A stretch of 64,000 nt of DNA from Thermofilaceae archaeon (GCA_038861545.1 JAWCCZ010000002.1:206434-270433); one strand, 5' to 3'. Shown: positions 8,176-30,422, numbered from the stretch's first letter. Notes: generated from the letters alone by a model not told the origin. Numbers and translations: made by a program.

Positions 8176-8287
8176 TGTATTGAAATAGAATGGTTCAAAT
8201 CTGATTACCTCTAAGGTTTTAAAAGTAATTAACAAGAATTCAGATATAATGCCAGAGAATAAAGTAAAAATCTCTTAAATAAGAAAA

Positions 8288-10222
8288 TTAGTATGGAGCC
8301 AGCCACGTAGACTTTACCATTATGGCAAAAGATATTAACAGCGAAGTTGCTACACCATATCCAACGACTGCACCAGCGTACACAGACCATTTAAGCCTCT
8401 CTACTGTTTCACGCTTGAAGCGAATTAGAATCCTATAAATTACGTGACCGATAGCTATCGATATCGCGTACGGAGGTATAGTTGAAGCTCCCACAGTAAA
8501 TATCACGAGCGAGAATGGGATGCGTAAAACCTTCGTGACAAAGTGTAGAAGAACTCCTAGTATGAATGCTGCTTCGAGAATAGGGTAGCTTTGACCCGGG
8601 TTTAGCAAAATCGATTGAAAAGCAGTGCCTCTCGTAATCCATAAGCAGCTTTGGATCACGTTTATGGGCCAGCTAGCTTGAGCCCAAGGATATGCTTGAG
8701 ATGGAATCGGACCGAACAACCAAATGATACTCGTGTGGATGAAACTCATTATCAGCGAAAGAGGTATCGCGATAGCGGCCACTGTGAGCACAACATCCCT
8801 AAGTTTTAATCCTATGTAGCGAGCCACGTAGAAGCGTGTACACCAAGTAACTCCATCACCCGGCATGGGGGCCAGCCAAGCACTGACTCCAAGCTGGCTG
8901 TGAACCGGTATATTACCTGAAGTCTGCGTAGTTATCAGAACTATCTCCCTCAGCGGTATTTGAGCCACCGAGTAACCGGTTTCTCCGACACCCCTCGCGT
9001 TAATTAGAGTAGAGAATAACGGCCAAAACACCGTCAGAATAGTTAAAGGAAGTATTGGAAATGATGGAAGGAGCAACGCTAAACTCGCCGTCCAAGCAGC
9101 AACGCCTAGAAAATAAATCGCTAACAACTTCCAATACGAGAATCCGACTGGTGCATTACCCCTCGCGCTACCTCCAAGTGTTGAGAAAGCACTTTTAAGG
9201 AACCTGCCTATGCGTGTTAGCTCAACAACCATTATCGCGAAAGTTAAGCCCACGAACGCGCTGCTCCAAACATGTAGGTACGTGAACTGCCAGTTCAGCG
9301 TTATATTGAATCCTGGTGTCCACTCAGGAACCAAATCCCTGAAGTAGGATAACAGTAAGGAGTTACCGATTATCCATATGGTGATAGAGCCGATTAGCAT
9401 AAGTACAACGTTAAATGTCGGAAGAATCAATCCTGCAAAGAATGTGAATAAGTCTGTAGCGATTCCTAGCAGAGTGCCGGGTAAGCCCAGCAAAGATTCG
9501 GCCCCTACTGATAGGTCAATAAAAGGTACCGGTATTAGCGTTACCACTCTGCCTCCCATCGTAGAGCCCAGTATATACGGTGTATAAACAAGCAGTGCGT
9601 AGACAAAAGCCGCTATAAAACCAAGAACCATAGCTCGCATTTTCTCATGCTCTCTTTCGCCCAGCGTAACAGCAATCTCTGCATCCACCCTAGCGAAGGG
9701 GAAAGGAAGTTTCTCCTCTATTACGTACATTTGATAAGCAAGGTATCCCAAGGGGAGTTCTATCACAAGCGGTAAAATAACCCCTAAGACAATTGAAACA
9801 AGAATTGGAATGAACCACTCCGGGTGAAGGAAAGTTCTGATTACCTGTTGTCTGATCAGAGGGTTACTGGGAACCCACCATTCTGGTAGGTATTCAGTTA
9901 CGCCGAAAGCCATTGCTTCAGGGCTGTTAGCAAAGTAAACCCTGTATATGAACTGGAAAAAGAACACATTATAGGCGGAGAGGCTTATTGCCAGATTCAT
10001 CAAGTATATCTCCTGTGATGAAAGGAAACGGCCTCCAAAACTCCTGAGCACAAAGTTAAACAATAGAATAGTTGTAAATGCAAGTCCTCCCGCGGCTCCC
10101 CCTATTAAGTTCATCCATATAGCTACTGGCATCAATGCGAGCGACGCAAAAATAGCAGCCAGTACAACGCGGAAGGTTATACCGCTCACCAATTGGGATT
10201 CTTGTATGCTCATGCAAACCAC
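8288..10222 (-). CDS. OPT (oligopeptide transporter) superfamily-like multi-pass membrane protein
   Basis: Many hydrophobic segments; N-terminal GITFRVV, LSSQE and YVIEEKLPFPFARV (OPT-like E-x-L-P-F-P motif). Confidence 0.7.
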   Translation of the reverse strand: MVCMSIQESQLVSGITFRVVLAAIFASLALMPVAIWMNLIGGAAGGLAFTTILLFNFVLRSFGGRFLSSQEIYLMNLAISLSAYNVFFFQFIYRVYFANSPEAMAFGVTEYLPEWWVPSNPLIRQQVIRTFLHPEWFIPILVSIVLGVILPLVIELPLGYLAYQMYVIEEKLPFPFARVDAEIAVTLGEREHEKMRAMVLGFIAAFVYALLVYTPYILGSTMGGRVVTLIPVPFIDLSVGAESLLGLPGTLLGIATDLFTFFAGLILPTFNVVLMLIGSITIWIIGNSLLLSYFRDLVPEWTPGFNITLNWQFTYLHVWSSAFVGLTFAIMVVELTRIGRFLKSAFSTLGGSARGNAPVGFSYWKLLAIYFLGVAAWTASLALLLPSFPILPLTILTVFWPLFSTLINARGVGETGYSVAQIPLREIVLITTQTSGNIPVHSQLGVSAWLAPMPGDGVTWCTRFYVARYIGLKLRDVVLTVAAIAIPLSLIMSFIHTSIIWLFGPIPSQAYPWAQASWPINVIQSCLWITRGTAFQSILLNPGQSYPILEAAFILGVLLHFVTKVLRIPFSLVIFTVGASTIPPYAISIAIGHVIYRILIRFKRETVERLKWSVYAGAVVGYGVATSLLISFAIMVKSTWLAPY

Positions 10223-13200
10223 CCCCCAGCTTTTTCGATATACAGTTTTCTATCTTCTTCTTTTAGAGAACGCCAAACTAGCAGCCGTTTCCTGACCTCA
10301 TCTACAAATCTCAGGTGATTAGCAATCCAGAGCTGGCGAGGGCCTGAAAGGTGTTCACTAGTCAGGATAAGGCGAAATCTTAGTTCGCGTGGGCCTTTCC
10401 TAGCAATTAGCTGAATGCGCTCTTCAACTCCTAACTCGTATGGCCTTAGTCGAACCCTCATATCTGATATGTAGGCTGTCTCCCTTCCTGACACGCTCTT
10501 AGAGTATGAAAGCCCAGTCACCATAAATGGCTGGGCTTCGCTACCGTAGGCGCGAAGGGATTCTCCAATGAAAGCTAGTAATCCTCTCGACTCAGCTTCA
10601 TTCCTAACGGTGAAAGGTAGCGAAATATCCCATCTACTTCCTCTAGGTCCAGAGGATGGCCTCCACTTTCGCTCAAGGGAAGGTACAACGATTTTCGATG
10701 CCATGTAGGCGGGGTAGACAGATGCTGTAACCACAGCTAAAATCGACACCAAGATACTCGTCACCACAGCTAGAGATGCATAGTTAAGTAATGGACCAGC
10801 TGCAACAGGTCCTAAAGCAAGACCTAAAGTATACCCTAGCGGTGCACTAAGAAAAGCATATGTGAGAACTTCTCCGAAGAAAACACCAGCCGCATCTCTC
10901 GGGCTAGCACCCACAGTAGCGTAAACCTGCATGTCCCGCATCCTTTCATATAAAGTTCCTAGAACCACTGACACTAACATTAGGAAACTTATCACCATAG
11001 GCACAAGTACAAACTGCCATCCTCCACCTAAGTAAGCTACTTCTCTTCGTAGATAAAGGAAACTGGAGCCTGGAGCTTCTTCCGTAGCTGCATATACATT
11101 ATGGGAATAGAACCCTATATACTCACTTAATTCATTGGCAACTTGCCTTATTAGATCCTTATCGTTCGACAGTAAAGCTACAGAAAAGGGATACCCACCT
11201 AAGCGCATGGCAAGCTTATATGGTATGTAAACAACCCCCCAATATGCCCGCTCCTTGATTGGCCCCGTTTTAAGGGGGTCAAAAGGTACGATTGGCTGAC
11301 CGTCTAAGTCATATATCGTTCTAAGCAGTCTGCTGTCTATAATTCCCATTACAGTAAGCTCCATGCCGTAAAGGTATACCCTGTCACCTGGCTCTAGATT
11401 CAAAGTTCTGGCTATATCATCAGTTACATAGCATTGAAACTCATCATCAAGCGTGAACCATGGACTTAATGCCTCTATAATTACATTCTGGAGTTCTAAA
11501 GCTTCAGCCTCAGCCTTAGATAAGCCGATTATTCCGCTTATTAGCACCGACTGGCCTGCAATGTTAAACAAATATATTCTCTGAGCTGGAATCCAAACCC
11601 TTGGGACAATTTTCATTTTTTCACCGTAAACCGTTGTCAAGTAATCAAGGAAAATAGGGTTGATTGGCTGAAAAGCTTCTCTACGTGTAACTAAAACTCC
11701 CGTGTAACGTGGGCTCCAAGTTACAGCTGGCTGTCCTGGTGGAGGTAAAGTAACTGTAACCCATGTGGAAGAGAGAGCGACAAATGATACTGTCGAGAAC
11801 GTCACTAACGTTACGCCAATAATTGTAAGTACAGTCCTCATATGTCTTCGCCTCAGGTTCTCCACTCCTATACTGATAGCAGTCATGGTCAACGATAACC
11901 TGTCAACGGTAACGAACATAGGTCCCATAAACCTGCTACGTATTTCTCTCACTATATTGCTGAATTCGTCAAACATTAATATCATCACAGGGATAACTAG
12001 TATTAGCGAAGTAGCGCCGAGAGCCGTTAGGAAAGAGTAACTCGCCACTTTAAATCCAGGATGAAGTAAATACTGAATTACAGTCAGCGTTAACATTATC
12101 GAAACCAACGCTATTAACCGTTTCTTTCCCTCATAGTGTAGCACCAATCTTTCGAACATAAAGACGAATGGTAAATTAAGCAAGAAAAAGAAAACCATTG
12201 CAACTCCCGTATCAATCACCATTGACTTGCTTTTCTCATAAGCATAAAGTGCGTAGTACCAAGCTTGTACGGTGTAGGCATAGTAATCGCTATAGCGGTA
12301 TTCCATCAGAGCACTTTCAGCGAGCTCGAGATTTCTAAGAGCTTTTCTATAGAACTCATCTAAATCTGCTGCTGTGGCCCCCATAAGACCTGCGCCAGTG
12401 AGAGCTTCAACCCTTCTTTTCACGACAGCTAGCAGATCTCTTGTGACTCTGAGTATCGTGGGAGCCGTATCTAAATAGTTAAAGGACACCGGCACTCCTT
12501 CCTCGTCGTTTATGAGTAACCCAATCGGATTCCCCCCACTGGTGAGAACCATCTTAATGCAGATATCCTTTGGAACAAATACCACAGCTTCGTAACCTGA
12601 GGTTGGATCAGTTAACGTGAATCTCCCTTCTGGTTTTTCAAAAATGGGTGGCTCTGATACAACATAGCTGTAACTTGTTAACCCTATACCTGACCTGTCA
12701 AGTATTTGTATACCCCCAACTGGAGGGGTCAAGAGGGAACGTGGATCAAAGAACTCATGCAGCGCTAATGTCGCCGACCTAAAGACTGCCAAGTTGACTA
12801 ACTTTCTACCGCTTCCATCAATTAATTCTGTTTCAGAGGTAAAGAAGGTGTAACCGTAGGGCCAAGATCTCGTACCGTAAACACCATAATCTGGAGCAAA
12901 AACTATATCGCCGGTTAACTTATCAATGATAAAGGGTAAAACCTGGTACTTAGCCACCGGCACTGCCCATCCGACACTTGGCGTCAATCCTTTCAAAGTA
13001 AAAGTCCCGTCCCTATCAGCAAGCTCTACCCATTCATGCCCAAGAAGATCGTTTCTCTCAAGAATCTTTACGTGTAGGACCATTTGATACCTTTCCTCTC
13101 TCAGATAGTCATGCCAGCTGTAGTTGTACCAGCCATGCTTAATATCCCATCTTCCAACCCTACCTTTCACAACGGTAAACCCAAGACCTCCTGTTTCAAA

Positions 13201-14790
13201 GTGCGTATGCGTTGGAATAGCCCTTCCCATAATTGACGCTTTGTCATAACTAATCCAAGATATATCATCTATTATCGCCCTAGCTAAGACAAATGAAAGT
13301 TCTACCTGAGGCCATAGGTTCTCAAAGTTTAATTTATCTAATGTGTCGAGGGGAGTTCCGTAAAGCGGCCGTGCAGTTAATGCTGTTGTAAAAGTTATCC
13401 CCCAAATACCCACTTGAGCTATAACAGCTGCATCAAAATGTCCTGGAGTTTGCAGATAACGGCGGTCAAGCTGTAAGCCAAAAGCAGTATACGTAAGGTT
13501 CCCAAGGCGTTCTTTGAGTTTTTCCCTAAGCTCGTCGCTACCCAAGTAGTATGTTCCAGAGCTCTCATTATACCTGCCATACCTACCCCGTGTGAAAAAG
13601 AGTGAGTAAAGGTCGTTATAACCGTACCAAGAATACCATACCTGTACACCGTAAAAAGTGCTTCCCGCGACAGCGGCAATAGCTCTCGATTCGGTTGAGA
13701 AATCAAAGCCAACGGCGAACCATAGTGTGTATGAGGTCAAGGAAGAGGCGTCGTTGCTACCTATGTGGCTGTAATGCCAAATGAAGCTAGAATTCTGGAT
13801 ATCTCGTCGATGCCAAACAAAATTCCTAGCACCTGCCATAGCTTGAGCGTGGCCTGATAGAGCTACGAGCCAAACAGACCTCTTAGGTGGATACTCTTTT
13901 AGAATCCTCGCAAATTCTAGTAAAGCTGTGATTCCTCCGGCTTCGTTCGCACCTGGAGCCAGTGCCGGTACTATAGAGTTGGAATCATAGTATGCTACTA
14001 CGACAACTGCATTTCGCCACTCTGCAGGATCGGTCCCCTTTATAACCGCGACTATGTTTTTAGCGGTAACTCTTTCCCACGTCATATTGACTACAACACG
14101 CGCCTTAACTTTCCCAACGCCGTAGTTTCTGATAAGTTCCCTCAAATAACCGGCATCACCACTGCTTATGTAAATTCTTGGGAATTTCACGGGGATATCC
14201 AAGCTTTTATGCTCAGCTTCACCTCTTAAGGTAAATACCGGTTCAATGAATACTACAGCTTTAGCACCAAGTCTCATAGCGTTAAGCCAATTATCTCTAG
14301 AGTTGAACTCCATTAACGCAATGCTACCGTTAATAGGCAATCCATTCAACTCCTCAAGCGACCCCTCACCAACGTACACTAGTGGACCTTCAAAAACCCC
14401 GCTGCATGTTTGAACGTTATTGGGTAAAAGGGCATAAGCTTTAATCTCCCTGTAAGTGGGGTCAAGAATAACGATCTTTGAGCCCCAATCCATTGGTATA
14501 GTTACGTTGTATTCTTCTACAAAAGTTTCTAAGCCCAGCGTGCTGTTAAAGTAGTCGAATATGTAGTTTGCTACCTCAATGCTTCCAGGATAACCGGTGT
14601 ACCTACTCCGAGAAGCTATATACCTTAAGTGTTCGATAATTTTACTACGATTAATCGTCAGCAGGGTAGTCTGTATAATGTTATCAGTTTCAGAGAACTC
14701 AGCTAGAACTCCTCTAAATAAACCTGCAGGATACGGTAAAGCCGATAAAATTAATACGAGCACCAAAGCAAACTTCAACCACTTATACAT
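10210..14790 (-). CDS. Large fusion: signal peptide, PA domain, degenerate M28 peptidase fold, then MacB/FtsX-type ABC permease
   Basis: SRYTGYPG (M28 N-terminus); GPLVYVGEG...GSIALM...GAKAVVFI (PA domain); NIVAVIKG...AYYDS...PGANEAGG (M28 fold); NLRRRHMRTVLT (MacB TM1); LYERMRDMQVYATVGASP (FtsX). Confidence 0.8.
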   Translation of the reverse strand: MYKWLKFALVLVLILSALPYPAGLFRGVLAEFSETDNIIQTTLLTINRSKIIEHLRYIASRSRYTGYPGSIEVANYIFDYFNSTLGLETFVEEYNVTIPMDWGSKIVILDPTYREIKAYALLPNNVQTCSGVFEGPLVYVGEGSLEELNGLPINGSIALMEFNSRDNWLNAMRLGAKAVVFIEPVFTLRGEAEHKSLDIPVKFPRIYISSGDAGYLRELIRNYGVGKVKARVVVNMTWERVTAKNIVAVIKGTDPAEWRNAVVVVAYYDSNSIVPALAPGANEAGGITALLEFARILKEYPPKRSVWLVALSGHAQAMAGARNFVWHRRDIQNSSFIWHYSHIGSNDASSLTSYTLWFAVGFDFSTESRAIAAVAGSTFYGVQVWYSWYGYNDLYSLFFTRGRYGRYNESSGTYYLGSDELREKLKERLGNLTYTAFGLQLDRRYLQTPGHFDAAVIAQVGIWGITFTTALTARPLYGTPLDTLDKLNFENLWPQVELSFVLARAIIDDISWISYDKASIMGRAIPTHTHFETGGLGFTVVKGRVGRWDIKHGWYNYSWHDYLREERYQMVLHVKILERNDLLGHEWVELADRDGTFTLKGLTPSVGWAVPVAKYQVLPFIIDKLTGDIVFAPDYGVYGTRSWPYGYTFFTSETELIDGSGRKLVNLAVFRSATLALHEFFDPRSLLTPPVGGIQILDRSGIGLTSYSYVVSEPPIFEKPEGRFTLTDPTSGYEAVVFVPKDICIKMVLTSGGNPIGLLINDEEGVPVSFNYLDTAPTILRVTRDLLAVVKRRVEALTGAGLMGATAADLDEFYRKALRNLELAESALMEYRYSDYYAYTVQAWYYALYAYEKSKSMVIDTGVAMVFFFLLNLPFVFMFERLVLHYEGKKRLIALVSIMLTLTVIQYLLHPGFKVASYSFLTALGATSLILVIPVMILMFDEFSNIVREIRSRFMGPMFVTVDRLSLTMTAISIGVENLRRRHMRTVLTIIGVTLVTFSTVSFVALSSTWVTVTLPPPGQPAVTWSPRYTGVLVTRREAFQPINPIFLDYLTTVYGEKMKIVPRVWIPAQRIYLFNIAGQSVLISGIIGLSKAEAEALELQNVIIEALSPWFTLDDEFQCYVTDDIARTLNLEPGDRVYLYGMELTVMGIIDSRLLRTIYDLDGQPIVPFDPLKTGPIKERAYWGVVYIPYKLAMRLGGYPFSVALLSNDKDLIRQVANELSEYIGFYSHNVYAATEEAPGSSFLYLRREVAYLGGGWQFVLVPMVISFLMLVSVVLGTLYERMRDMQVYATVGASPRDAAGVFFGEVLTYAFLSAPLGYTLGLALGPVAAGPLLNYASLAVVTSILVSILAVVTASVYPAYMASKIVVPSLERKWRPSSGPRGSRWDISLPFTVRNEAESRGLLAFIGESLRAYGSEAQPFMVTGLSYSKSVSGRETAYISDMRVRLRPYELGVEERIQLIARKGPRELRFRLILTSEHLSGPRQLWIANHLRFVDEVRKRLLVWRSLKEEDRKLYIEKAGGWFA

Positions 14791-14839
14791 AGGTAAATCA
14801 CCATCAAAAGTAAAAAAGATTCTAAGATTTTAAAACATT

Positions 14840-16885
14840 CTACCTGCCTTGTATAGCGAACACTATACCCCTAGCTGGCAGGTAACCGATGAAAGCACCT
14901 ATGAATAGGCCGAGGAACGCTGGAAAAGCTTTCTCTTCATAGAACTTAGATCCAAAGATCTTAAGTATTAAGAACTTAATTACGTATGCTACTAAACCAT
15001 AGAGGAACGCGTAGAAACTCACGGAGAATAGCATTAATCCAACAGGGTTAAGTGGGAACCAGGCGAAACGCATCCTAGCAAAACCCATAGCGAGCACTAA
15101 TAGTACACCGAGTAAAACATTCAAGTAGAAGTACGGAGCTTTATCTCCTCCATAGGGTCCGAAACCTCCCTTCATTAAACCGTCAACCGTAGCGGGCCAT
15201 ACCAGCTGCTGACCAGCCCACCAATCCGCTACATAGTTTTTCACACCAACGTTCGAGATAACCTGAGCTAACAGCGTGAAAGTCAAGGGTACAGCAACTA
15301 ACGTTGCTATTAATTGTGCTATAAAGACTTCTTTAAGGTCGGTTTTCGTGGACTCGGCTATGCTCATAGCTTCAATACCAGCAATACCATAGTTCCACTG
15401 TGCATACCATTTCTGACCTGGCCCCTCTACGAAATTCCTTGTCACGTAAAGGTGTAATGCTTGTTCACCAGTTAACGGAGTATAGAAGCCAGGAGCTGCA
15501 CCTACAGCTACAGCTAGATGATAGAAACCGTTTGACAAGATATCGCTGCCTCCTGTCCACGGTCCCCAATTCCCTGCCATAAAACCGGGCCAGACGTCTC
15601 CTCTTATTCTAATCTGGGTGAACAACGAGAATGCTAGAACAAAAACTGCATAGAATGCTAACAGGGGATGTGCACCAGATACAGACATGAAAGCAAATAA
15701 CAGCGCAGTTGAACCAATTATCATTACCCATATAGTTCTGTAGGACAGCGGTACATTACCCTTGCCGCCCCTAGACAAAGCCTTCAACGTTCTAGTTAAG
15801 TGGTGTCTCGCCATCCATATGGTTAAAATACCAATGCCTATCCACACACTGTGATCAAGTATAACCTCAGGCATTATTGGTGGAGTATCCATACCCATAG
15901 TGTAGAAGACCGGCCATTCTGATGATCCAAACATCGGCTCTCTAAAGCCTCCAGCAACCGCTATTATCGGCCATATTATCCAGAATACAATGAAGGCGAC
16001 TATACCTGTTAACAGTATGTCAAGTGGGAACAAAAGATAGTAGCTTAAACCTAAGATATCTATACTCCATGCTATCAGAGCATTAGTGAAAGGAGTTGGT
16101 AATTGTCCAACATAAGACACATCGTAACCTATGTATGAGGGTATAGATTGTTGAATAGCAGGTACTAATTCGACACCAGGTGGCCCTTGCACATTTATTA
16201 AAAGCCCAATTGCGAAGGCGACCCAGAAGAAAATAGATTTCCATAGATTTGGTATCCTACCTCCCTCCTTTACAGTTGTACTTTGAATTGCAAGCCATTC
16301 AGCAACTCTTGCTAGTGGATATTCAAGCCTTTCAACTTCGAGGAACTGCTCCTTGTAAAGTAACGCGATACCATATGATAACGCGAAAAGCATTAATTGT
16401 ATGAAAGTGAAAAGTATAACTGTAGGGAAAAGCGCGCTTATTGGAGCTCCTCCGTCCCAGAGCTGGTCTTTAAGACCTTTTGGTACCCAGAAACCGGGAA
16501 CAGCATCCCAGCTTAACACGAAATCAGACTGAAGGATGCCGAAAAGATACGAAAATGTAGCTAATCCTACACAGAAAGGCACTGGCACCATACTCCAGAT
16601 AATAGCATAAACTATGGTGTTTTCCTGTGCAGAGAGCCGCTTTCTAAGTATTAATGAACTTAGTAGACTCGTGATAACTAAGGTCAAGAGAAAGACGAAG
16701 TACTGAGTGCCAAAGAATACCATTACTCTAAGAGTCCGCCTAACCGATAATCGCGGCCACCAGTATAAAGGTAGAATGAAAAGAATTCCAGCCACCAAAC
16801 CTATTAGAAGAGCTCTCAATGTTAATCCTTTAGGCCTCACCTCAACTGTGGCTCCAGAGGTGATTTGAACACCTTCTGTGCTCAT
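14840..16885 (-). CDS. DUF6785/DUF6784-like OPT-related multi-pass membrane protein
   Basis: GLTLRALLIG, LSAQE, EQFLEVERLEYPLARV and C-terminal RMRFAWFPLNPVG motifs; highly hydrophobic. Confidence 0.68.
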   Translation of the reverse strand: MSTEGVQITSGATVEVRPKGLTLRALLIGLVAGILFILPLYWWPRLSVRRTLRVMVFFGTQYFVFLLTLVITSLLSSLILRKRLSAQENTIVYAIIWSMVPVPFCVGLATFSYLFGILQSDFVLSWDAVPGFWVPKGLKDQLWDGGAPISALFPTVILFTFIQLMLFALSYGIALLYKEQFLEVERLEYPLARVAEWLAIQSTTVKEGGRIPNLWKSIFFWVAFAIGLLINVQGPPGVELVPAIQQSIPSYIGYDVSYVGQLPTPFTNALIAWSIDILGLSYYLLFPLDILLTGIVAFIVFWIIWPIIAVAGGFREPMFGSSEWPVFYTMGMDTPPIMPEVILDHSVWIGIGILTIWMARHHLTRTLKALSRGGKGNVPLSYRTIWVMIIGSTALLFAFMSVSGAHPLLAFYAVFVLAFSLFTQIRIRGDVWPGFMAGNWGPWTGGSDILSNGFYHLAVAVGAAPGFYTPLTGEQALHLYVTRNFVEGPGQKWYAQWNYGIAGIEAMSIAESTKTDLKEVFIAQLIATLVAVPLTFTLLAQVISNVGVKNYVADWWAGQQLVWPATVDGLMKGGFGPYGGDKAPYFYLNVLLGVLLVLAMGFARMRFAWFPLNPVGLMLFSVSFYAFLYGLVAYVIKFLILKIFGSKFYEEKAFPAFLGLFIGAFIGYLPARGIVFAIQGR

Positions 16886-17276
16886 CGATTACTAAATAAG
16901 AATTATCCGTTTATATAATTTTCCATAATTTTTTTAAATAGATTTAAGTCAGGTTGGTCTAAATATCTCTATATTTTTTGAAAAAGGTTTGAATAACCTA
17001 ATTAAGAAAAACTATTACTGATCATTATGCTAAAAATTAACGGATATTTTTATTTAATAATTCCCTAGCTGTATAATTGCCTACTTAATTAATATTAAAC
17101 TTAAATTTTTAGCTTATAATATTCATCTTTATGATGATGTTTAATTTCAAATTTATAAAATTATCTAAACATCTTCTCTCTATTTAAAAGCTTAGAAATA
17201 ATACTTTAAAAATAAATATTTTAACTAACTATTCTAACCGAAAATCATATTAACTTGAAAGATTAATCTTATTGGA
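16886..17276. promoter_or_regulatory. Very AT-rich divergent promoter region; TATA box TTATATAA at 16911-16918 serves the minus-strand operon
   Basis: Sampled 60-mers have 13-22% GC. The TATA element lies 26-33 bp upstream of the ATG at 16885. Confidence 0.6.
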
Positions 17277-17648
17277 ATGATCTATTTAACAGAGGAAGAA
17301 TTTCACCAAAGAACCCCCTACACGGTACAATATAATGTAGACCTTGAGGGGCGGTCAGGATTTAACCATCGATTTGATGCCTTGATCAGGTATATGGGAA
17401 ATAGCCTGGGAATAGTTTTCATTGACCCAATAGTGTGGAGGAAAGTTATAATACTTTTAGTGATGGAGTTTGATTCTCTGGTAAGCTTAGCTGTTATAAC
17501 ACAAAATGTGGATCAAAAAATTAGACACTTCCTAGAAAACCAAGGAATTATAATAGCTAAAAGCATTGAAGAGGCTGCCGCGATTTTTCGCGATTCCTAT
17601 TTAATTACATCCCCCAAAACGGCCCAAGATAAGTATCCTAGCATTTAG
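17277..17648 (+). CDS. Hypothetical protein, restriction-endonuclease-like (PD-(D/E)XK-type) fold candidate
   Basis: LEGRSGFNHRFDAL resembles the G-x-S-G-x-x-H-x-F-D signature of archaeal Mrr-like domains. Confidence 0.5.
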   Translation: MIYLTEEEFHQRTPYTVQYNVDLEGRSGFNHRFDALIRYMGNSLGIVFIDPIVWRKVIILLVMEFDSLVSLAVITQNVDQKIRHFLENQGIIIAKSIEEAAAIFRDSYLITSPKTAQDKYPSI

Positions 17649-20286: not shown

Positions 20287-21222
20287 TTAAGCCTGCTTCA
20301 TTTTTACGCGAGTTTTTACAAACTTGGTATAAGCTAGGTAGCCGAAAACACCGGCTAGCATCAATGGCGAAAACCCGATGAGGAGTATAATTGTCCCGTA
20401 GATTACGGAGTAGAGCAGGCCTAGAGCGGAGGCGAGAGCCGGCATAGGGTCGAAACTTGGGAAGGTTACAATAGGTTTAATCTCTTTCGGCGGAGCCTCA
20501 ATATGAACCCTTATGCTTGAGAACTGGACACTTCTCTCCAAGTTTTTAAGCTGAGCTTCGTACCACTCGATGTTGGATCTCACCCTTGTAAGGTAATCTT
20601 CAACTTTCAGCAACTCCTCCACAGTTTTCGCCTGGGAGAGAAGCTGGAGCAACCTCTCCTCCTGAGCTCTCAGAGCTTTTAACCTTGCCTCCAGGTCGAT
20701 GTACTGCTCAGTCACATCCCTTGCCGTTGTCGAAACCTCTATCACGCTCGCCAGCTTTTTCAGCTCCTCCAGTGTCTTGTTGAACTTCTCCTGCGGCACC
20801 TTGAGAAGCACTACGGCGTAATCCTCACCAACATACATTTCACCAACATAGCCTCCAAACGCATCAGCAAGCCTCGACGCTCTCTCCGCAACGCGGGACA
20901 CATCCTCAATGCCCCCTACGCGCAACCTCACGTAACCCTCCATTATCACTTTCCTGCCTTCCGGCAGGCTGTACGACATGCCGCTACCACCTCCGGGCCC
21001 TGTAGTTGTAACGCTTGTCGCGGGCCCCGCTTTGCTATAGGTTGACTCCAAACCTGGACTTGAAGCAAAGCTAGGGATCCCTCCTCTTCCAATGAGTCCA
21101 AAGGGGGATCCTGTTAAAGTCTCGTAGATCGGCTGGAAGCTAATCGAAAGGAAAAAGCCGATTATGATGCCGGAAAAAAGTAGCGCTGTGCACGCGGCAA
21201 CTAATTTCACTTGTTTATTCAT
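20287..21222 (-). CDS. DUF4349 domain membrane-anchored protein
   Basis: RKVI, DVTEQYIDLEARL coiled coil, N- and C-terminal TM helices. Confidence 0.85.
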   Translation of the reverse strand: MNKQVKLVAACTALLFSGIIIGFFLSISFQPIYETLTGSPFGLIGRGGIPSFASSPGLESTYSKAGPATSVTTTGPGGGSGMSYSLPEGRKVIMEGYVRLRVGGIEDVSRVAERASRLADAFGGYVGEMYVGEDYAVVLLKVPQEKFNKTLEELKKLASVIEVSTTARDVTEQYIDLEARLKALRAQEERLLQLLSQAKTVEELLKVEDYLTRVRSNIEWYEAQLKNLERSVQFSSIRVHIEAPPKEIKPIVTFPSFDPMPALASALGLLYSVIYGTIILLIGFSPLMLAGVFGYLAYTKFVKTRVKMKQA

Positions 21223-21299: not shown

Positions 21300-22568
21300 C
21301 TACGGGTAAAAGCTGCTACCGTACGCGGTCTCGAGCATAGCGACTACGTTCCGAGGCGGTGTACGAGGCTGAATGTTATGTACTTGGCAGAAAACGTACC
21401 CCCCACCCCTCTTAAATACCTCGACGCTAGCCTTTACATGTGCAACCACATCGTCAACTTGAGCGAAAGGAAGCACATGCTGTGTGTCGGCACCGCCTCC
21501 CCAAAACGCTAGCTGCTCGCCGAACTCCTTCTTCAACCGTTCTGGTTCCATGTTCCTAGCAGAAATTTGAACCGGGTTCAATGCATCCACGCCAGCGTCG
21601 ATAAGGTCCGGTATTAGCTCATACACGGACCCGCATGAGTGAAGGAAAACGAACATTTTTGAATGCTTCTTCACGTACTGGTACAGCTCTTCGTGGTACG
21701 GTTTCAGCATTTCCCTGTAAACTTTCGGCGGGATCTGTGGACCCGCTTGAGTTCCTAAATCGTCGCCGAACTCGATTACATGGATGAAATCCTTTAAAGC
21801 TTCCACGTACTTTTTCACGTTGTGTAGGTTCACCTCAAGCATGTAGTCGAGAATCTTCGAAGCTAGGCTTTTTCTAAAGGTTAAGTCTACCAGCCACGTA
21901 CTCCAACCACGCAACCCTTGACCCCACTCGTGGAAACCCGAGTACGTGGAGTACATAAGGGCGTAGTCGGTGGTCCTGTAAAGGTGCTCAGCCTTCCTCC
22001 TCACCCATTCAACTTGGGCATCGCTAACCTTATACATGTCCCAGTTGTAGCTGTCAACCTCCTCAGGGCTCTTTACCCCAGCTAAAGGATGATCGCTTTG
22101 CCAGCTATTGACACCGCCGAAGTAGTAGCTCCCTCTTGGCATCCTTGACACAATTTTGCTACTTGCGTTTCTGATAACCCAGCCGCCTTCTCCATCCGGC
22201 TCCGGGTTAAACCACTCAGGGATTTCGCATGGAGTACCATCAGGTAAAACCCACGGTTTCCATCTCCGCCCGTCAGGACCGCATGGGTCTAGGCTCCTCG
22301 TAACATCCAGCACGTCGACGTGGAAGAGCTCGAGTATACTTTTTTCTGGTTCAGCGAGCTGTTGTCCTGTATCGTACACACGGATTACACCGCCTTTAAA
22401 GTTGAGGTATCTCCTTAACCCCGCGTAGGCTACTGCGTGGATACCGGTTGAAGCCATTGCACCTAAGTCGATTGGTACTCTATCGGGCTCCTCATGACGT
22501 AGTGCAGCAATAACGCGTTCCCTGCGGCTCATCCACTCTTTAGTGGACACGCTTCCTCCACTAGACAT
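21300..22568 (-). CDS. Uroporphyrinogen decarboxylase/MtaA-CmuA family TIM-barrel protein
   Basis: RERVIAALRHEEPDRVP, GDDLGTQ, HSCG, LNPVQ and FWGGG motifs. Confidence 0.88.
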   Translation of the reverse strand: MSSGGSVSTKEWMSRRERVIAALRHEEPDRVPIDLGAMASTGIHAVAYAGLRRYLNFKGGVIRVYDTGQQLAEPEKSILELFHVDVLDVTRSLDPCGPDGRRWKPWVLPDGTPCEIPEWFNPEPDGEGGWVIRNASSKIVSRMPRGSYYFGGVNSWQSDHPLAGVKSPEEVDSYNWDMYKVSDAQVEWVRRKAEHLYRTTDYALMYSTYSGFHEWGQGLRGWSTWLVDLTFRKSLASKILDYMLEVNLHNVKKYVEALKDFIHVIEFGDDLGTQAGPQIPPKVYREMLKPYHEELYQYVKKHSKMFVFLHSCGSVYELIPDLIDAGVDALNPVQISARNMEPERLKKEFGEQLAFWGGGADTQHVLPFAQVDDVVAHVKASVEVFKRGGGYVFCQVHNIQPRTPPRNVVAMLETAYGSSFYP

Positions 22569-25954: not shown

Positions 25955-27061
25955 GTGGAAAATCCGGTTGAAAATCTTGTATTAGACGTTTTCGAGGGGG
26001 CAACGGAGGCCATACCCTTCAATATTCGCCACGAGTACTGGTACCATGTTAACAGGGCAGCAAAAACTTTACCGTACGAGTATGAGAGGCTCGACCTACC
26101 GGACATTTGCAAATTATGGAACGCTACCTGGAGATGCTACAGTGGCTACTATGTTGAAAGTTGCGTGAAAGTAGGGTACGAAAATATCGTTTTCAAAACC
26201 GAGGTAATTGACAACAGGACTATTACCTCCGTCTTAACCCCTTTTGGCGAGCTAAGAAGAGTGCTCGCATATGATCAGTACGGGTTATCGGCTCAAACCT
26301 TAGAATTCCCCGTTAAAAGTGTCAATGATTTTAGAGCACTCGAATACGTGTTAGGGAGCATTAAAGTTAAGTTTGACCACGCCGCGTATGAGAAGCTTAA
26401 ACTACGGGCAGGTTCACAGGGCTTTATCACATACTTTTTCCCACACAGCCCTTTACAGGCATTGTTCCTTGACTGGGCCGGTATTCCAACTACTGTGAGG
26501 TTACTTAGGCTGGAAAGAAAAAGAGTCGAAGAGCTTATGGAAGCTATCCACGAGCACAACTGGGTGTTTTACAGGGAACTAGCCCGGTCACCTATGAAAA
26601 TCCTCAACTTGGGGGAGAACATTGATGTAAGAATAACCTCCCCCGAGCTTTTTAGAAGGTACTGTTTACCCATTTACGCAGAAGTTGCTGATTACTTACA
26701 TGGTTATAACAAATATGTTCATATCCATGTTGATGGTTATGCCAAGCAGCTGCTTGCGCTGCTGGGAGAGACCGGGCTTGATGGAGTAGAGGCTTTAACA
26801 CCAAAACCGGTTGGTGATTTTACTTTAGAGGAAGCTAAAGATCGAATCGGTGATATGGTGGTGCTAGATGGAATACCTTACCTTCTGTTCCTACCTCACC
26901 TTGACTTGGAACTATTGAAAAAATTCGTATACAGGATTGTAGAATTATTTAGAAGTCAATTAATCTTAGGTATCTCTGATGAGCTTCCACCTCCAGCCGA
27001 CCTGGAAAGGGTAAAGCTAGTTTCTAAAATGCTTGAAGAGTTAAATAGCCGTTCTAGCTAA
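25955..27061 (+). CDS. Divergent uroporphyrinogen decarboxylase family protein
   Basis: TPFGEL, EFPVKSVND, HIHVDG, EALTPKPVGD and ILGISDELPP motifs. Start uncertain. Confidence 0.75.
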   Translation: MENPVENLVLDVFEGATEAIPFNIRHEYWYHVNRAAKTLPYEYERLDLPDICKLWNATWRCYSGYYVESCVKVGYENIVFKTEVIDNRTITSVLTPFGELRRVLAYDQYGLSAQTLEFPVKSVNDFRALEYVLGSIKVKFDHAAYEKLKLRAGSQGFITYFFPHSPLQALFLDWAGIPTTVRLLRLERKRVEELMEAIHEHNWVFYRELARSPMKILNLGENIDVRITSPELFRRYCLPIYAEVADYLHGYNKYVHIHVDGYAKQLLALLGETGLDGVEALTPKPVGDFTLEEAKDRIGDMVVLDGIPYLLFLPHLDLELLKKFVYRIVELFRSQLILGISDELPPPADLERVKLVSKMLEELNSRSS

Positions 27062-29459: not shown

Positions 29460-30422
29460 TCAAGGGGAATTGAGGGGTATCAGAGCTTTCAGCACAGGTT
29501 CTATCCATCGGTTGTTCGATATATCGTATAGTATAAAATCGCTGTCGAACTGCCAGTAAGCCCAGCTCCACCCTAGGCTTTCCGCTGACCTAGCTACGAA
29601 ACTCAGGTAACGAACACGTGAATCCATCGGGGCTTTATCATAAACCCCAAATTCCCCCAGGAAAACCGGCCTATCACGAGACTTTGCCCATGACTGAGCT
29701 TTGCTGAAAGCTTCTACGATCGCGTTCCTCTCTTCTTCGCTTCCCTTCCACTCGATGCCAACTTTACCCTCCAGTCCAGCCCATTTAGCGCCTTGATGGG
29801 TGAACTGGAAAGGCTCGTAGTAGTGCACGGTTACAATTATTTTCCGGTCTTCTTCGGGCAGCTCAAGCTTGTCAAGGTAACTAATGCTGTTCCAGAAAGC
29901 CGGTCCTATAATCACGCCTCTATCCGGGTTGGTTTTCCTCACCACTTGCAAGGCCTCTTTGAGGAAAATATTCCAGAGCTCTGGCGTCAGTTGGTTATTT
30001 GGCTCGTTTAAAAGCTCGAATAAAATTTCCTCCGGATAGTCACTATACCTCTCGCTTACCTGCTTCCAGAAGGACAGGAACCTATCCTTGAGTTCCAATG
30101 GGGCCTTACCCATTGCGATGAACTCGTGGAAGTCTAGAACCGCTAACAATCGGTTATCGAGAGCTTGTTCAATAGCCCAATCCAGCACGCTGAGCCAGTA
30201 GCTTGCGAGGTTTCCATTATCGTCCATCCCTTTGTCCCGGAAGGGGTGTAGACATATCCTCACACTGCTGAAACCGGTTTCTCTTATCAGCGTAAAATGT
30301 TCATCTTTCATCCGGGCTTCACTTTTAGATTTCCAAACAGGGTCATAGCCTAGAATGTTTACACCCCTCCCCAACCTTTTATTCAACTCGAAAATGTCCA
30401 TTTCACCCGCCCTCCCCTCCAA
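29460..30422 (-). CDS. Glycoside hydrolase family 5 (endoglucanase/cellulase-like), no signal peptide
   Basis: LGRGVN, FELLNEP (acid/base Glu), TVHYYEPFQFTHQGA and FLGEFG (nucleophile Glu). Confidence 0.92.
   Translation of the reverse strand: MEGRAGEMDIFELNKRLGRGVNILGYDPVWKSKSEARMKDEHFTLIRETGFSSVRICLHPFRDKGMDDNGNLASYWLSVLDWAIEQALDNRLLAVLDFHEFIAMGKAPLELKDRFLSFWKQVSERYSDYPEEILFELLNEPNNQLTPELWNIFLKEALQVVRKTNPDRGVIIGPAFWNSISYLDKLELPEEDRKIIVTVHYYEPFQFTHQGAKWAGLEGKVGIEWKGSEEERNAIVEAFSKAQSWAKSRDRPVFLGEFGVYDKAPMDSRVRYLSFVARSAESLGWSWAYWQFDSDFILYDISNNRWIEPVLKALIPLNSP

Follow-up and report, generated by a model that had tools for sequence, protein, structure and literature searches.

Cassettes of two or three genes coding for OPT-fold membrane proteins and a MacB/FtsX-type permease with a degenerate peptidase-like ectodomain in a Thermofilaceae archaeon

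What might three adjoining archaeal genes do when the outer two code for proteins resembling OPT carriers, and the middle one joins a peptidase-like ectodomain to a MacB/FtsX-type permease? The question was raised by a locus of a Thermofilaceae archaeon (GCA_038861545.1) lying in a stretch of 64,000 nucleotides (JAWCCZ010000002.1:206434-270433), which is called the window below; positions given without a contig or locus name are counted from its first letter. An earlier inspection of the DNA without database searches (the sequence-only reading) had described three co-oriented genes for proteins of 681, 1526 and 644 amino acids (aa) with a gap of 49 bp, and had proposed them as a candidate undescribed membrane machine. 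The open reading frames (ORFs) were found exactly so on the minus strand, with the gap between the first gene (A) and the second (B).

Gene A: 14840..16885, minus strand, ORF of 681 aa; polytopic membrane protein with DUF6785 and DUF6784.
Gene B: 10210..14790, minus strand, ORF of 1526 aa; giant membrane protein with a receptor-like ectodomain, a MacB/FtsX-type permease and a cytoplasmic domain.
Gene C: 8288..10222, minus strand, longest ORF of 644 aa, probably 641 aa; OPT/YSL-fold permease and constant partner of B.

The trio is one of six paralogous cassettes in this genome, and the answer proposed here is that they would confer specificity on an uptake system in which ATP assists the capture of peptides or similar nutrients and OPT-fold proteins import them. 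A probability of about 0.45 is given to this reading.

The architecture of protein B was investigated using Pfam, AlphaFold2, Foldseek and VIA. All of the proposed parts were recovered, namely PA and M28 domains, several transmembrane (TM) helices, a MacB-type permease with an extracellular loop and a cytoplasmic C-terminal domain. They are arranged as follows.

B aa 40-520: 13231..14673, minus strand, degenerate PA and M28-like ectodomain (AYYDS, GANEAGG, SGHAQ, YGTPLDT), from PDB 2ek8 and column counts.
B aa 521-860: 12211..13230, minus strand, beta-rich domains and then a helical stalk, the region that varies most within the family, from AlphaFold2 secondary structure.
B aa 861-955: 11926..12210, minus strand, three extra TM helices before the MacB module, from hydropathy and AlphaFold2 helices.
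B aa 960-1368: 10687..11913, minus strand, MacB-type module, from Foldseek, VIA and conservation of the coupling helix.
B aa 1369-1526: 10213..10686, minus strand, cytoplasmic alpha/beta C-terminal domain (PSLERKW...KPRG..W...RKQLL.W), from alignments and AlphaFold2.

The ectodomain is M28-like: residues 53-356 matched the PA+M28 aminopeptidase 2ek8 (E 2.8e-12), and Pfam recognised M28 in B (8.6e-11). An active M28 metallopeptidase displays the zinc ligands His, Asp, Glu, Asp and His as well as a general-base Glu, and this set is not preserved in B. The protein of the window has Y267 in place of the first His ligand, N282/E283 at the position of the Asp ligand, G313-H314 instead of the Glu-Glu pair and G478 instead of the last His. 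Of 52 homologs, 43 have Gly, 8 Ala and 1 Ser in the column of the general base; the following residue was His in 48 of the 52, and the last His ligand was lost. This replacement of the catalytic Glu agrees with the proposed fusion of a pseudopeptidase to a MacB-type permease; judged from these columns, hydrolysis by the ectodomain is unlikely throughout the family. The first His ligand is still present in about half of the family, the Asp-ligand position is acidic in most members, and a conserved His replaces the Glu ligand, so that a single metal site (His, Asp/Glu, His, Asp) may survive in many of these proteins. Nicalin was matched weakly (E about 0.2), and one B homolog carries a Pfam Nicastrin match. 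The region downstream (aa 521-860) showed a mean identity of 0.22-0.23 and was the richest in gaps in the family alignment.

The AlphaFold2 model of aa 505-1526 (predicted local distance difference test score, pLDDT, 81) displayed in order the beta-rich domains, the helical stalk, the three extra TM helices, the MacB-type module and the alpha/beta cytoplasmic domain. The module consists of an elbow helix, TM1, an extracytoplasmic Porter/Sabre-like domain, TM2, a coupling helix (ERMRD...G..P), TM3 and TM4. It thus holds what defines permeases of type VII ATP-binding cassette (ABC) systems, an FtsX core of four TM helices in which TM1 and TM2 are separated by an extracytoplasmic domain, together with the cytoplasmic coupling helix between TM2 and TM3 on which their ATPases dock (ER.R(D/E)...G..P at B 1282-1297). 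Foldseek matched the module to MacB (5gko, E 5.5e-11), and VIA to YtrF (9o9x_C, Z 14.8) and to the MacB periplasmic domain (3ftj, Z 14.2, root-mean-square deviation (rmsd) 4.2 over 184 residues). MacB, LolC/E, YtrF, YbbP, HrtB and FtsX were the structural neighbours, with BceB also among them. Besides M28, Pfam recognised FtsX (37.4 bits, cut-off 25.5) and, weakly, MacB_PCD. Residues E1282, R1283, R1285, G1294 and P1297 of the coupling helix are invariant across the six local B paralogs; R1283, G1294 and P1297 are also invariant in 59 B homologs, where the whole motif is nearly so. Conservation is best in the PA/M28 region, in the TM2-4 region, with the coupling helix among the top segments, and in the C-terminal domain; it is poorest in the beta-rich middle and the MacB extracytoplasmic domain.

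The C-terminal domain (about 140-150 aa, pLDDT about 90) marks the full-size B family, and a search of the genome with this domain alone matched exactly six giants. KA1, START and Aha1-like folds were found at Z 8.4-9.4, which is middling, and no such identity was assigned. Five shorter giant FtsX/MacB_PCD proteins (about 710-1090 aa) were also observed in the genome, lacking both M28 and the conserved C-terminal domain (L015:821-4093, minus strand; G000 C4:120563-123589, C1:412737-415562, C1:255369-257513 and C1:136981); none of them adjoins an ATPase gene.

The proposal that the flanking proteins are OPT-like was confirmed at the level of the fold, and not by the Pfam OPT family. Neither A nor C of the window matched PF03169 at E <= 0.1, and C reached no Pfam family above threshold. 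Protein A contains DUF6785 (PF20581, aa 22-428, 3.6e-15, 55.9 bits with a cut-off of 25) and DUF6784 (PF20580, aa 590-666, 3.9e-9, 37.0 bits with a cut-off of 26.4). Pfam OPT was reached by 3 of 20 C homologs (best 6.6e-9), and 11% of the members of one DUF6785 cluster in the ESM Atlas carry it. The AlphaFold2 model of C (pLDDT 89, predicted TM-score 0.91) was matched by Foldseek to barley Yellow Stripe 1 (YS1, 7wst) with E 7e-10 and TM-scores of 0.65/0.69, so the fear that the flanking proteins would lack the OPT fold did not come true. VIA superposed C on 7wst_A with Z 24.3 and an rmsd of 3.7 Å (542/601 residues), the next match having Z 4.0. Sequence identity between C and YS1 is about 14%. 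Sequence-only searches of the PDB with A and with the C-family profile returned nothing, and YS1 surfaced by fold comparison only. The ESM Atlas model of A fitted an OPT/YSL cluster with TM-scores of 0.57/0.63 across 540 residues.

Comparison of 35 A-type with 56 C-type sequences by hhalign gave a probability of 100 and E 8e-40 over 588 columns, and jackhmmer fused both families by iteration 2, while BLASTP of A against C found no significant match; the paralogy is therefore visible by profiles only. An E-x-L-P-F-P motif following a TM helix is common to both proteins, as is L-[ST]-x-Q-E, and the charged residues E71, R129 and D236 are invariant or nearly so in the family. From the profile and fold evidence, A and C both belong to the OPT/YSL fold superfamily as divergent members; they are distant paralogs of ancient origin, and A represents a divergent branch. 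Barley YS1 (HvYS1) is a homodimeric elevator-type importer, and the OPT/YSL proteins that have been characterised import by an ion-coupled elevator mechanism (PMC9691689).

Is the trio a unit? Using phmmer, six B genes were identified in the 1.63-Mb genome, 27-31% identical and each adjoining a C gene. Four of these six cassettes also hold an A gene, and the gene order is A-B-C, C-B or divergent. Their combined span of about 47 kb makes up 2.9% of the genome, and none of its 11 OPT-superfamily ORFs and four DUF6785 matches falls outside the cassettes. One A-type gene, that of the second cassette (L013, G000:C1:247455-249563, plus strand), is split by one in-frame TGA into ORFs of 173 and 490 aa, which could reflect a pseudogene, a mistake in the assembly or recoding.

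The sequence-only reading had mentioned similar trios in other polymer-degrading prokaryotes, and the trio does recur in many archaeal and bacterial genomes; a survey of neighbourhoods found many loci in which B and C stay together. Relatives of B, scanned for in one genome per species, numbered 118. The archaeal carriers were Bathyarchaeia, Brockarchaeota, Thermofilaceae, Desulfurococcaceae and other Thermoproteota; the bacterial ones included Armatimonadota, of which uncultured members supplied the loci, as well as Brocadiaceae and Poribacteria, where B reaches about 2500 aa. The family spans several archaeal lineages and no fewer than four bacterial phyla, across envelopes as different as those of S-layer archaea and diderm bacteria. 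An exhaustive search with the MacB module plus tail collected 668 clusters at 50% identity (E <= 1e-30), and the public names of the homologs are generic ("FtsX-like permease family protein", "M28 family peptidase"). B and C remain next to each other in Bathyarchaeia, Brockarchaeota, Thermofilaceae, Armatimonadota, Poribacteria and Brocadiaceae. Loci with at least 2.5 kb of flank on both sides numbered 31 in archaea and 13 in bacteria; C was no more than 800 bp away from B in 25 and 8 of them respectively, the archaeal B-C gaps often being negative or below 20 bp; A was located within 3 kb of B in 19 of the 31 archaeal loci. The order B-C-B'-A was also seen in other archaea (L025, L041, L089). 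Distance matrices of B and its adjacent C correlate with r = 0.95 (Mantel p = 0.001), and those of the six local pairs with r = 0.83, so B-C pairs have been inherited and duplicated as units. Of the conserved trio that had been proposed, the widespread linkage of B and C stood, whereas A is variable; the conserved core is B and C.

The trio did not hold up as the whole machine, since at least four further conserved parts, an ATPase among them, were found. In Armatimonadota and Poribacteria, operons are ordered B-C-X-P-S-N, though not all of the genes were seen at each locus. X is a protein of about 320-340 aa with no Pfam family, whose fold weakly resembles tandem DcrB/PsbP-like models (TM-score 0.53); hhalign detected no relationship between the X family and the C-terminal domain of B. 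A PqqD domain was recognised in P by Pfam, at 2e-13 in this genome and at about 1e-11 in the bacterial operons; P scores below the cut-offs of the lasso, PQQ and SCM PqqD models. S is an FtsX permease of about 215 aa without ectodomain. N is an ATPase; LolD and MacB rank best among its NCBIfam matches, which also include the darobactin export ATPase DarD. One homolog of each was identified in this genome, not linked to the cassettes.

X: C5:2653-3618, cytoplasmic protein of 321 aa.
P: C4:224641-225045, PqqD-like peptide-binding protein.
S and adjacent N: C3:19994-21492, small FtsX permease and LolD/MacB-type ATPase.

Within 6 kb of the cassette of the window, of the other five local cassettes and of most archaeal loci, no ABC ATPase was detected. 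Co-distribution was examined in 201 Thermoproteota genomes, whose counts are not phylogenetically independent. B was matched in 54 of them. P was matched in 54 as well (52 in common with B), X in 47 (46 in common) and full-length small-S orthologs in 54 (49 in common). Counted by its C-terminal domain, B is present in 1-9 copies per genome, as against one X, 1-3 P and, among the 150 matches listed, one full-length small S per positive genome. Archaeal genomes in which X and P could both be placed mostly have the two side by side, P-S and X-B pairs of neighbours were seen in family f30, and S and N are adjacent in 5 of 8 loci. From the bacterial operons, the single S-N pair and the co-distribution with B, the ATPase that seems missing from the cassettes does exist and is probably shared among them. 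Operon fusion in bacteria, pairwise neighbourhoods in archaea and co-distribution point to one system, made of a shared core and multiple B-C(-A) cassettes.

The expression signals of the cassette were read from the DNA and are listed below.

16911..16918, minus strand: TATA-box-like TTATATAA, 26-33 nt upstream of the ATG of A.
14798..14802, minus strand: Shine-Dalgarno-like GGTGA, 7 nt before the ATG of B, inside the 49-bp A-B gap.
10210..10213, minus strand: ATGA overlap of the probable ATG of C with the TGA stop of B, from the sequence and a 641-aa homolog.
8262..8287, minus strand: T-rich, terminator-like tract directly after the stop of C.

Where a TATA box had been claimed before the first gene, a TATA-box-like element was indeed located; it sits within an AT-rich spacer of 390 bp (GC content 0.37 over 16-18 kb). 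The claimed overlap of 13 bp between B and C is correct for the longest ORF of C, which starts at a GTG at 10222. The real overlap is probably 4 nt, because the alternative ATG at 10213-10211 overlaps the B stop (TGA, 10212-10210) as ATGA, is preceded by a G-rich GGGGGTGG tract and agrees with the length (641 aa) of a C homolog that is 96% identical. Translational coupling of B and C at this probable start is suggested, and with TTATATAA, GGTGA, the overlap and the T-rich tract laid out as they are, a single transcript with coupled translation would fit.

Beyond the AT-rich spacer upstream of A, a divergent ORF of 123 aa (17277-17648, plus strand) has no Pfam family. URO-D/MtaA-like genes are located near cassettes, in the window at 21300-22568 (minus strand) and 25955-27061 (plus strand) and elsewhere at L015:4181-5272 (minus strand). 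Six of the 10 such paralogs in the genome lie within 12 kb of a cassette, when roughly one would be expected; a URO-D-like gene (about 356 aa) flanks the module in nine other archaeal loci, and an MttB-family gene adjoins cassette 6. This recurrence of URO-D and MttB genes may hint at the imported substrate or be due to chance. Cassette 4 is flanked by ORFs of 798 aa (L015:15494-17890, plus strand) and 563 aa (L015:5396-7087, minus strand), both without Pfam family, which may code for further cassette-specific accessory proteins. The window also codes for a DUF4349 protein (20287-21222, minus strand) and a GH5 cellulase (29460-30422, minus strand), which fits a polymer-degrading lifestyle; neither gene is linked to the module in other genomes.

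How would such a system work? Type VII ABC proteins work by mechanotransmission, their substrates lying outside the cytoplasm, and those of the MacB type turn cytoplasmic ATP hydrolysis into movement of an extracytoplasmic domain. In the reading favoured here, B and S would pair as a LolC/LolE-like heterodimer and dock a dimer of N via the conserved coupling helix of B. ATP hydrolysis would then be transmitted through the stalk to the PA/pseudo-M28/beta ectodomain, as in MacB. The ectodomain would bind a ligand outside the cell, the likeliest being a peptide or an oligomer that bears peptides, and would deliver it to C, an OPT-fold elevator with an outward-open cavity, which would carry it into the cell either as a homodimer or together with A. 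X and P would act on the cytoplasmic side, and the diverged ectodomains of the B paralogs would confer different specificities. Beyond the observed folds, paralogy, linkage and co-distribution, we infer complex formation, the pairing of B with S, the cargo and the direction in which it moves. That P has a peptide-binding fold speaks weakly for peptides, as against the glycans that the sequence-only reading also named; so, weakly, do the descent of the ectodomain from aminopeptidases and the peptides or chelates carried by known OPT proteins.

Carried further, this would become a new hybrid class of transporter, in which B, S and the LolD-type ATPase would dock on OPT-fold elevators, ATP would serve to load the captured cargo, and one motor, X and a peptide binder with the fold of a RiPP recognition element (RRE; RiPP, ribosomally synthesised and post-translationally modified peptide) would be common to up to nine interchangeable cassettes in a genome. 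This extension is put forward more tentatively than uptake itself; if true, it would be a cytoplasmic-membrane counterpart of the TonB-energised receptor families. An uptake machine would represent a third way to energise nutrient capture, beside binding-protein ABC importers and TRAP/TonB systems, would give a function to DUF6785/DUF6784 and would bear on the feeding of uncultured polymer- or peptide-degrading archaea (Bathyarchaeia, Brockarchaeota, Thermofilaceae).

Several points weigh against uptake. Characterised type VII ABC systems export, extract or signal and do not import, and PqqD-like proteins are otherwise known from pathways of peptide maturation or export; because of these precedents, an outward-acting machine would fit equally well. 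Three complete genomes of the same family have none of B, P, X and S, so the system is accessory. S of this genome scored 16 bits to the FtsX module of B as compared with 37 bits to ordinary FtsX, and was rejected as the closest relative of that module. As S is not specially B-like, its pairing with B is drawn from operon context and co-distribution. Physical contact among B, C, A, S, N, X and P is likewise what we infer from the genes; a complex prediction with the TM segments of B (aa 855-1010 and 1255-1384) and C scored 0.01, with a mark of 0.32, and counts neither way. Among the neighbouring genes of the cassettes examined, no consistent substrate clue was obtained, the URO-D-like gene alone recurring.

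The alternative that survives best reverses the direction. In an outward-acting envelope machine modelled on Lol, Lpt, MacAB or darobactin-type export, the OPT-fold proteins would move a peptide, lipid-linked or other precursor out, B, S and N would extract it or deliver it to the surface, and P would chaperone a peptide substrate in the cytoplasm. Characterised type VII systems act outward or on outer-leaflet or periplasmic substrates, in agreement with the structural neighbours of B, and the DarD match of N points the same way. PqqD-like proteins are leader-peptide binders in RiPP pathways, and P matched the three PqqD models below their cut-offs. However, neither a precursor peptide nor a maturation enzyme was recognised in the operon genes or the recurrent flanking families examined, and the characterised OPT/YSL proteins are importers (PMC9691689). 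The contrast between up to nine diverged cassettes and a mostly single-copy core resembles the diversification of nutrient receptors more than housekeeping export, and the carriers have very different envelopes. Outward action is considered unlikely on balance; were it true, it would reveal a new envelope-assembly route common to archaea and diderm bacteria.

Surface sensing or regulation is a second alternative, in which B would be a mechanosensor like BceAB or FtsEX, and the OPT-fold proteins would be regulated transporters or scaffolds with no ligand hand-over. Two type VII ABC systems, FtsEX and BceAB, do not transport but serve signalling or the control of partners, and BceB and FtsX are among the fold matches of B; the dead M28 folds of nicastrin, nicalin and the transferrin receptor are receptors, which gives the weak nicalin matches and the single Pfam Nicastrin match some meaning. 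No kinase, regulator or hydrolase is conserved beside the cassettes in the neighbourhoods examined, though, and the tight 1:1 coupling of B and C, their ATGA overlap and their co-diversification point instead to a stoichiometric working pair, so that sensing appears distinctly improbable. It is very improbable that the trio is self-contained and independent of ATP, with the FtsX module of B a mere anchor and A and C ordinary ion-driven OPT importers co-transcribed by chance: the lack of an ABC ATPase near the six local cassettes and most archaeal loci would suit it, but the coupling-helix motif is invariant or nearly so across the B family, bacterial operons place S and N directly after B-C-X-P, and S-type permeases are present in 49 of the 54 B-positive genomes.

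With what is the proposed uptake system to be compared? Among the type VII ABC systems (MacB of MacAB-TolC, LolCDE, FtsEX, YtrEF, YbbAP, HrtBA, BceAB), the C-terminal half of B shares the topology and fold of MacB. A LolD/MacB-type ATPase and a second, small FtsX permease also belong to its system, which suggests a mechanotransmission heterodimer like LolC/LolE. Unlike them, B adds an N-terminal ectodomain of about 830 aa (PA, pseudo-M28, beta and stalk), three TM helices and a cytoplasmic domain, the second permease lacks an ectodomain, and the obligate partners are OPT-fold proteins, X and the PqqD-like P. The archaeal motor genes are moreover unlinked and apparently common to several cassettes. 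To our knowledge, OPT-fold, X or PqqD-like partners are not found with any described type VII system.

With the OPT/YSL family (TC 2.A.67, PF03169), the system shares C, which superposes on HvYS1 (7wsr/7wst), and A, a full-length homolog of C. It differs in that every OPT-superfamily gene of this genome is located beside a B gene, and we know of no characterised OPT protein working with an ABC motor or a receptor subunit. Like the inactive M28/PA receptors, B keeps the scaffold and loses the catalytic Glu and a His ligand, and its M28 domain is likewise predicted to face outward, attached to a membrane complex. Here it is fused to an ABC-type permease, and no specific kinship beyond the M28 fold was seen. 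P shares the PqqD domain with the discrete RRE/PqqD proteins of RiPP pathways; unlike these, it travels with X, S-N and B across genomes, and no RiPP genes were recognised among the operon and recurrent flanking genes examined.

The likeness to tripartite ATP-independent periplasmic transporters (TRAP-T) and to SusCD would be one of function only, an extracytoplasmic capture module feeding a separate translocator. TRAP-T pairs a binding protein with an elevator-type carrier, and SusCD is an outer-membrane, TonB-dependent pair; there is no homology to either, and the capture module of B would be anchored in the membrane and driven by ATP. Neither a TonB-dependent barrel nor a SusD lipoprotein domain was detected in A, B or C. 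The SusCD comparison of the sequence-only reading would be an analogy, and the A-C heterodimer and the hand-over of a ligand that this reading suggested are putative. Its statement that no characterised system combines OPT with MacB/FtsX proteins agrees with the literature searched on DUF6785/DUF6784 and on the domain combinations, in which no description of this system was found. We know of no described system in which a MacB-type ABC motor is combined with OPT-fold permeases, a receptor domain of the dead-peptidase kind and a protein of the RRE type. The folds of the parts are all known, and it is their combination that appears to be new.

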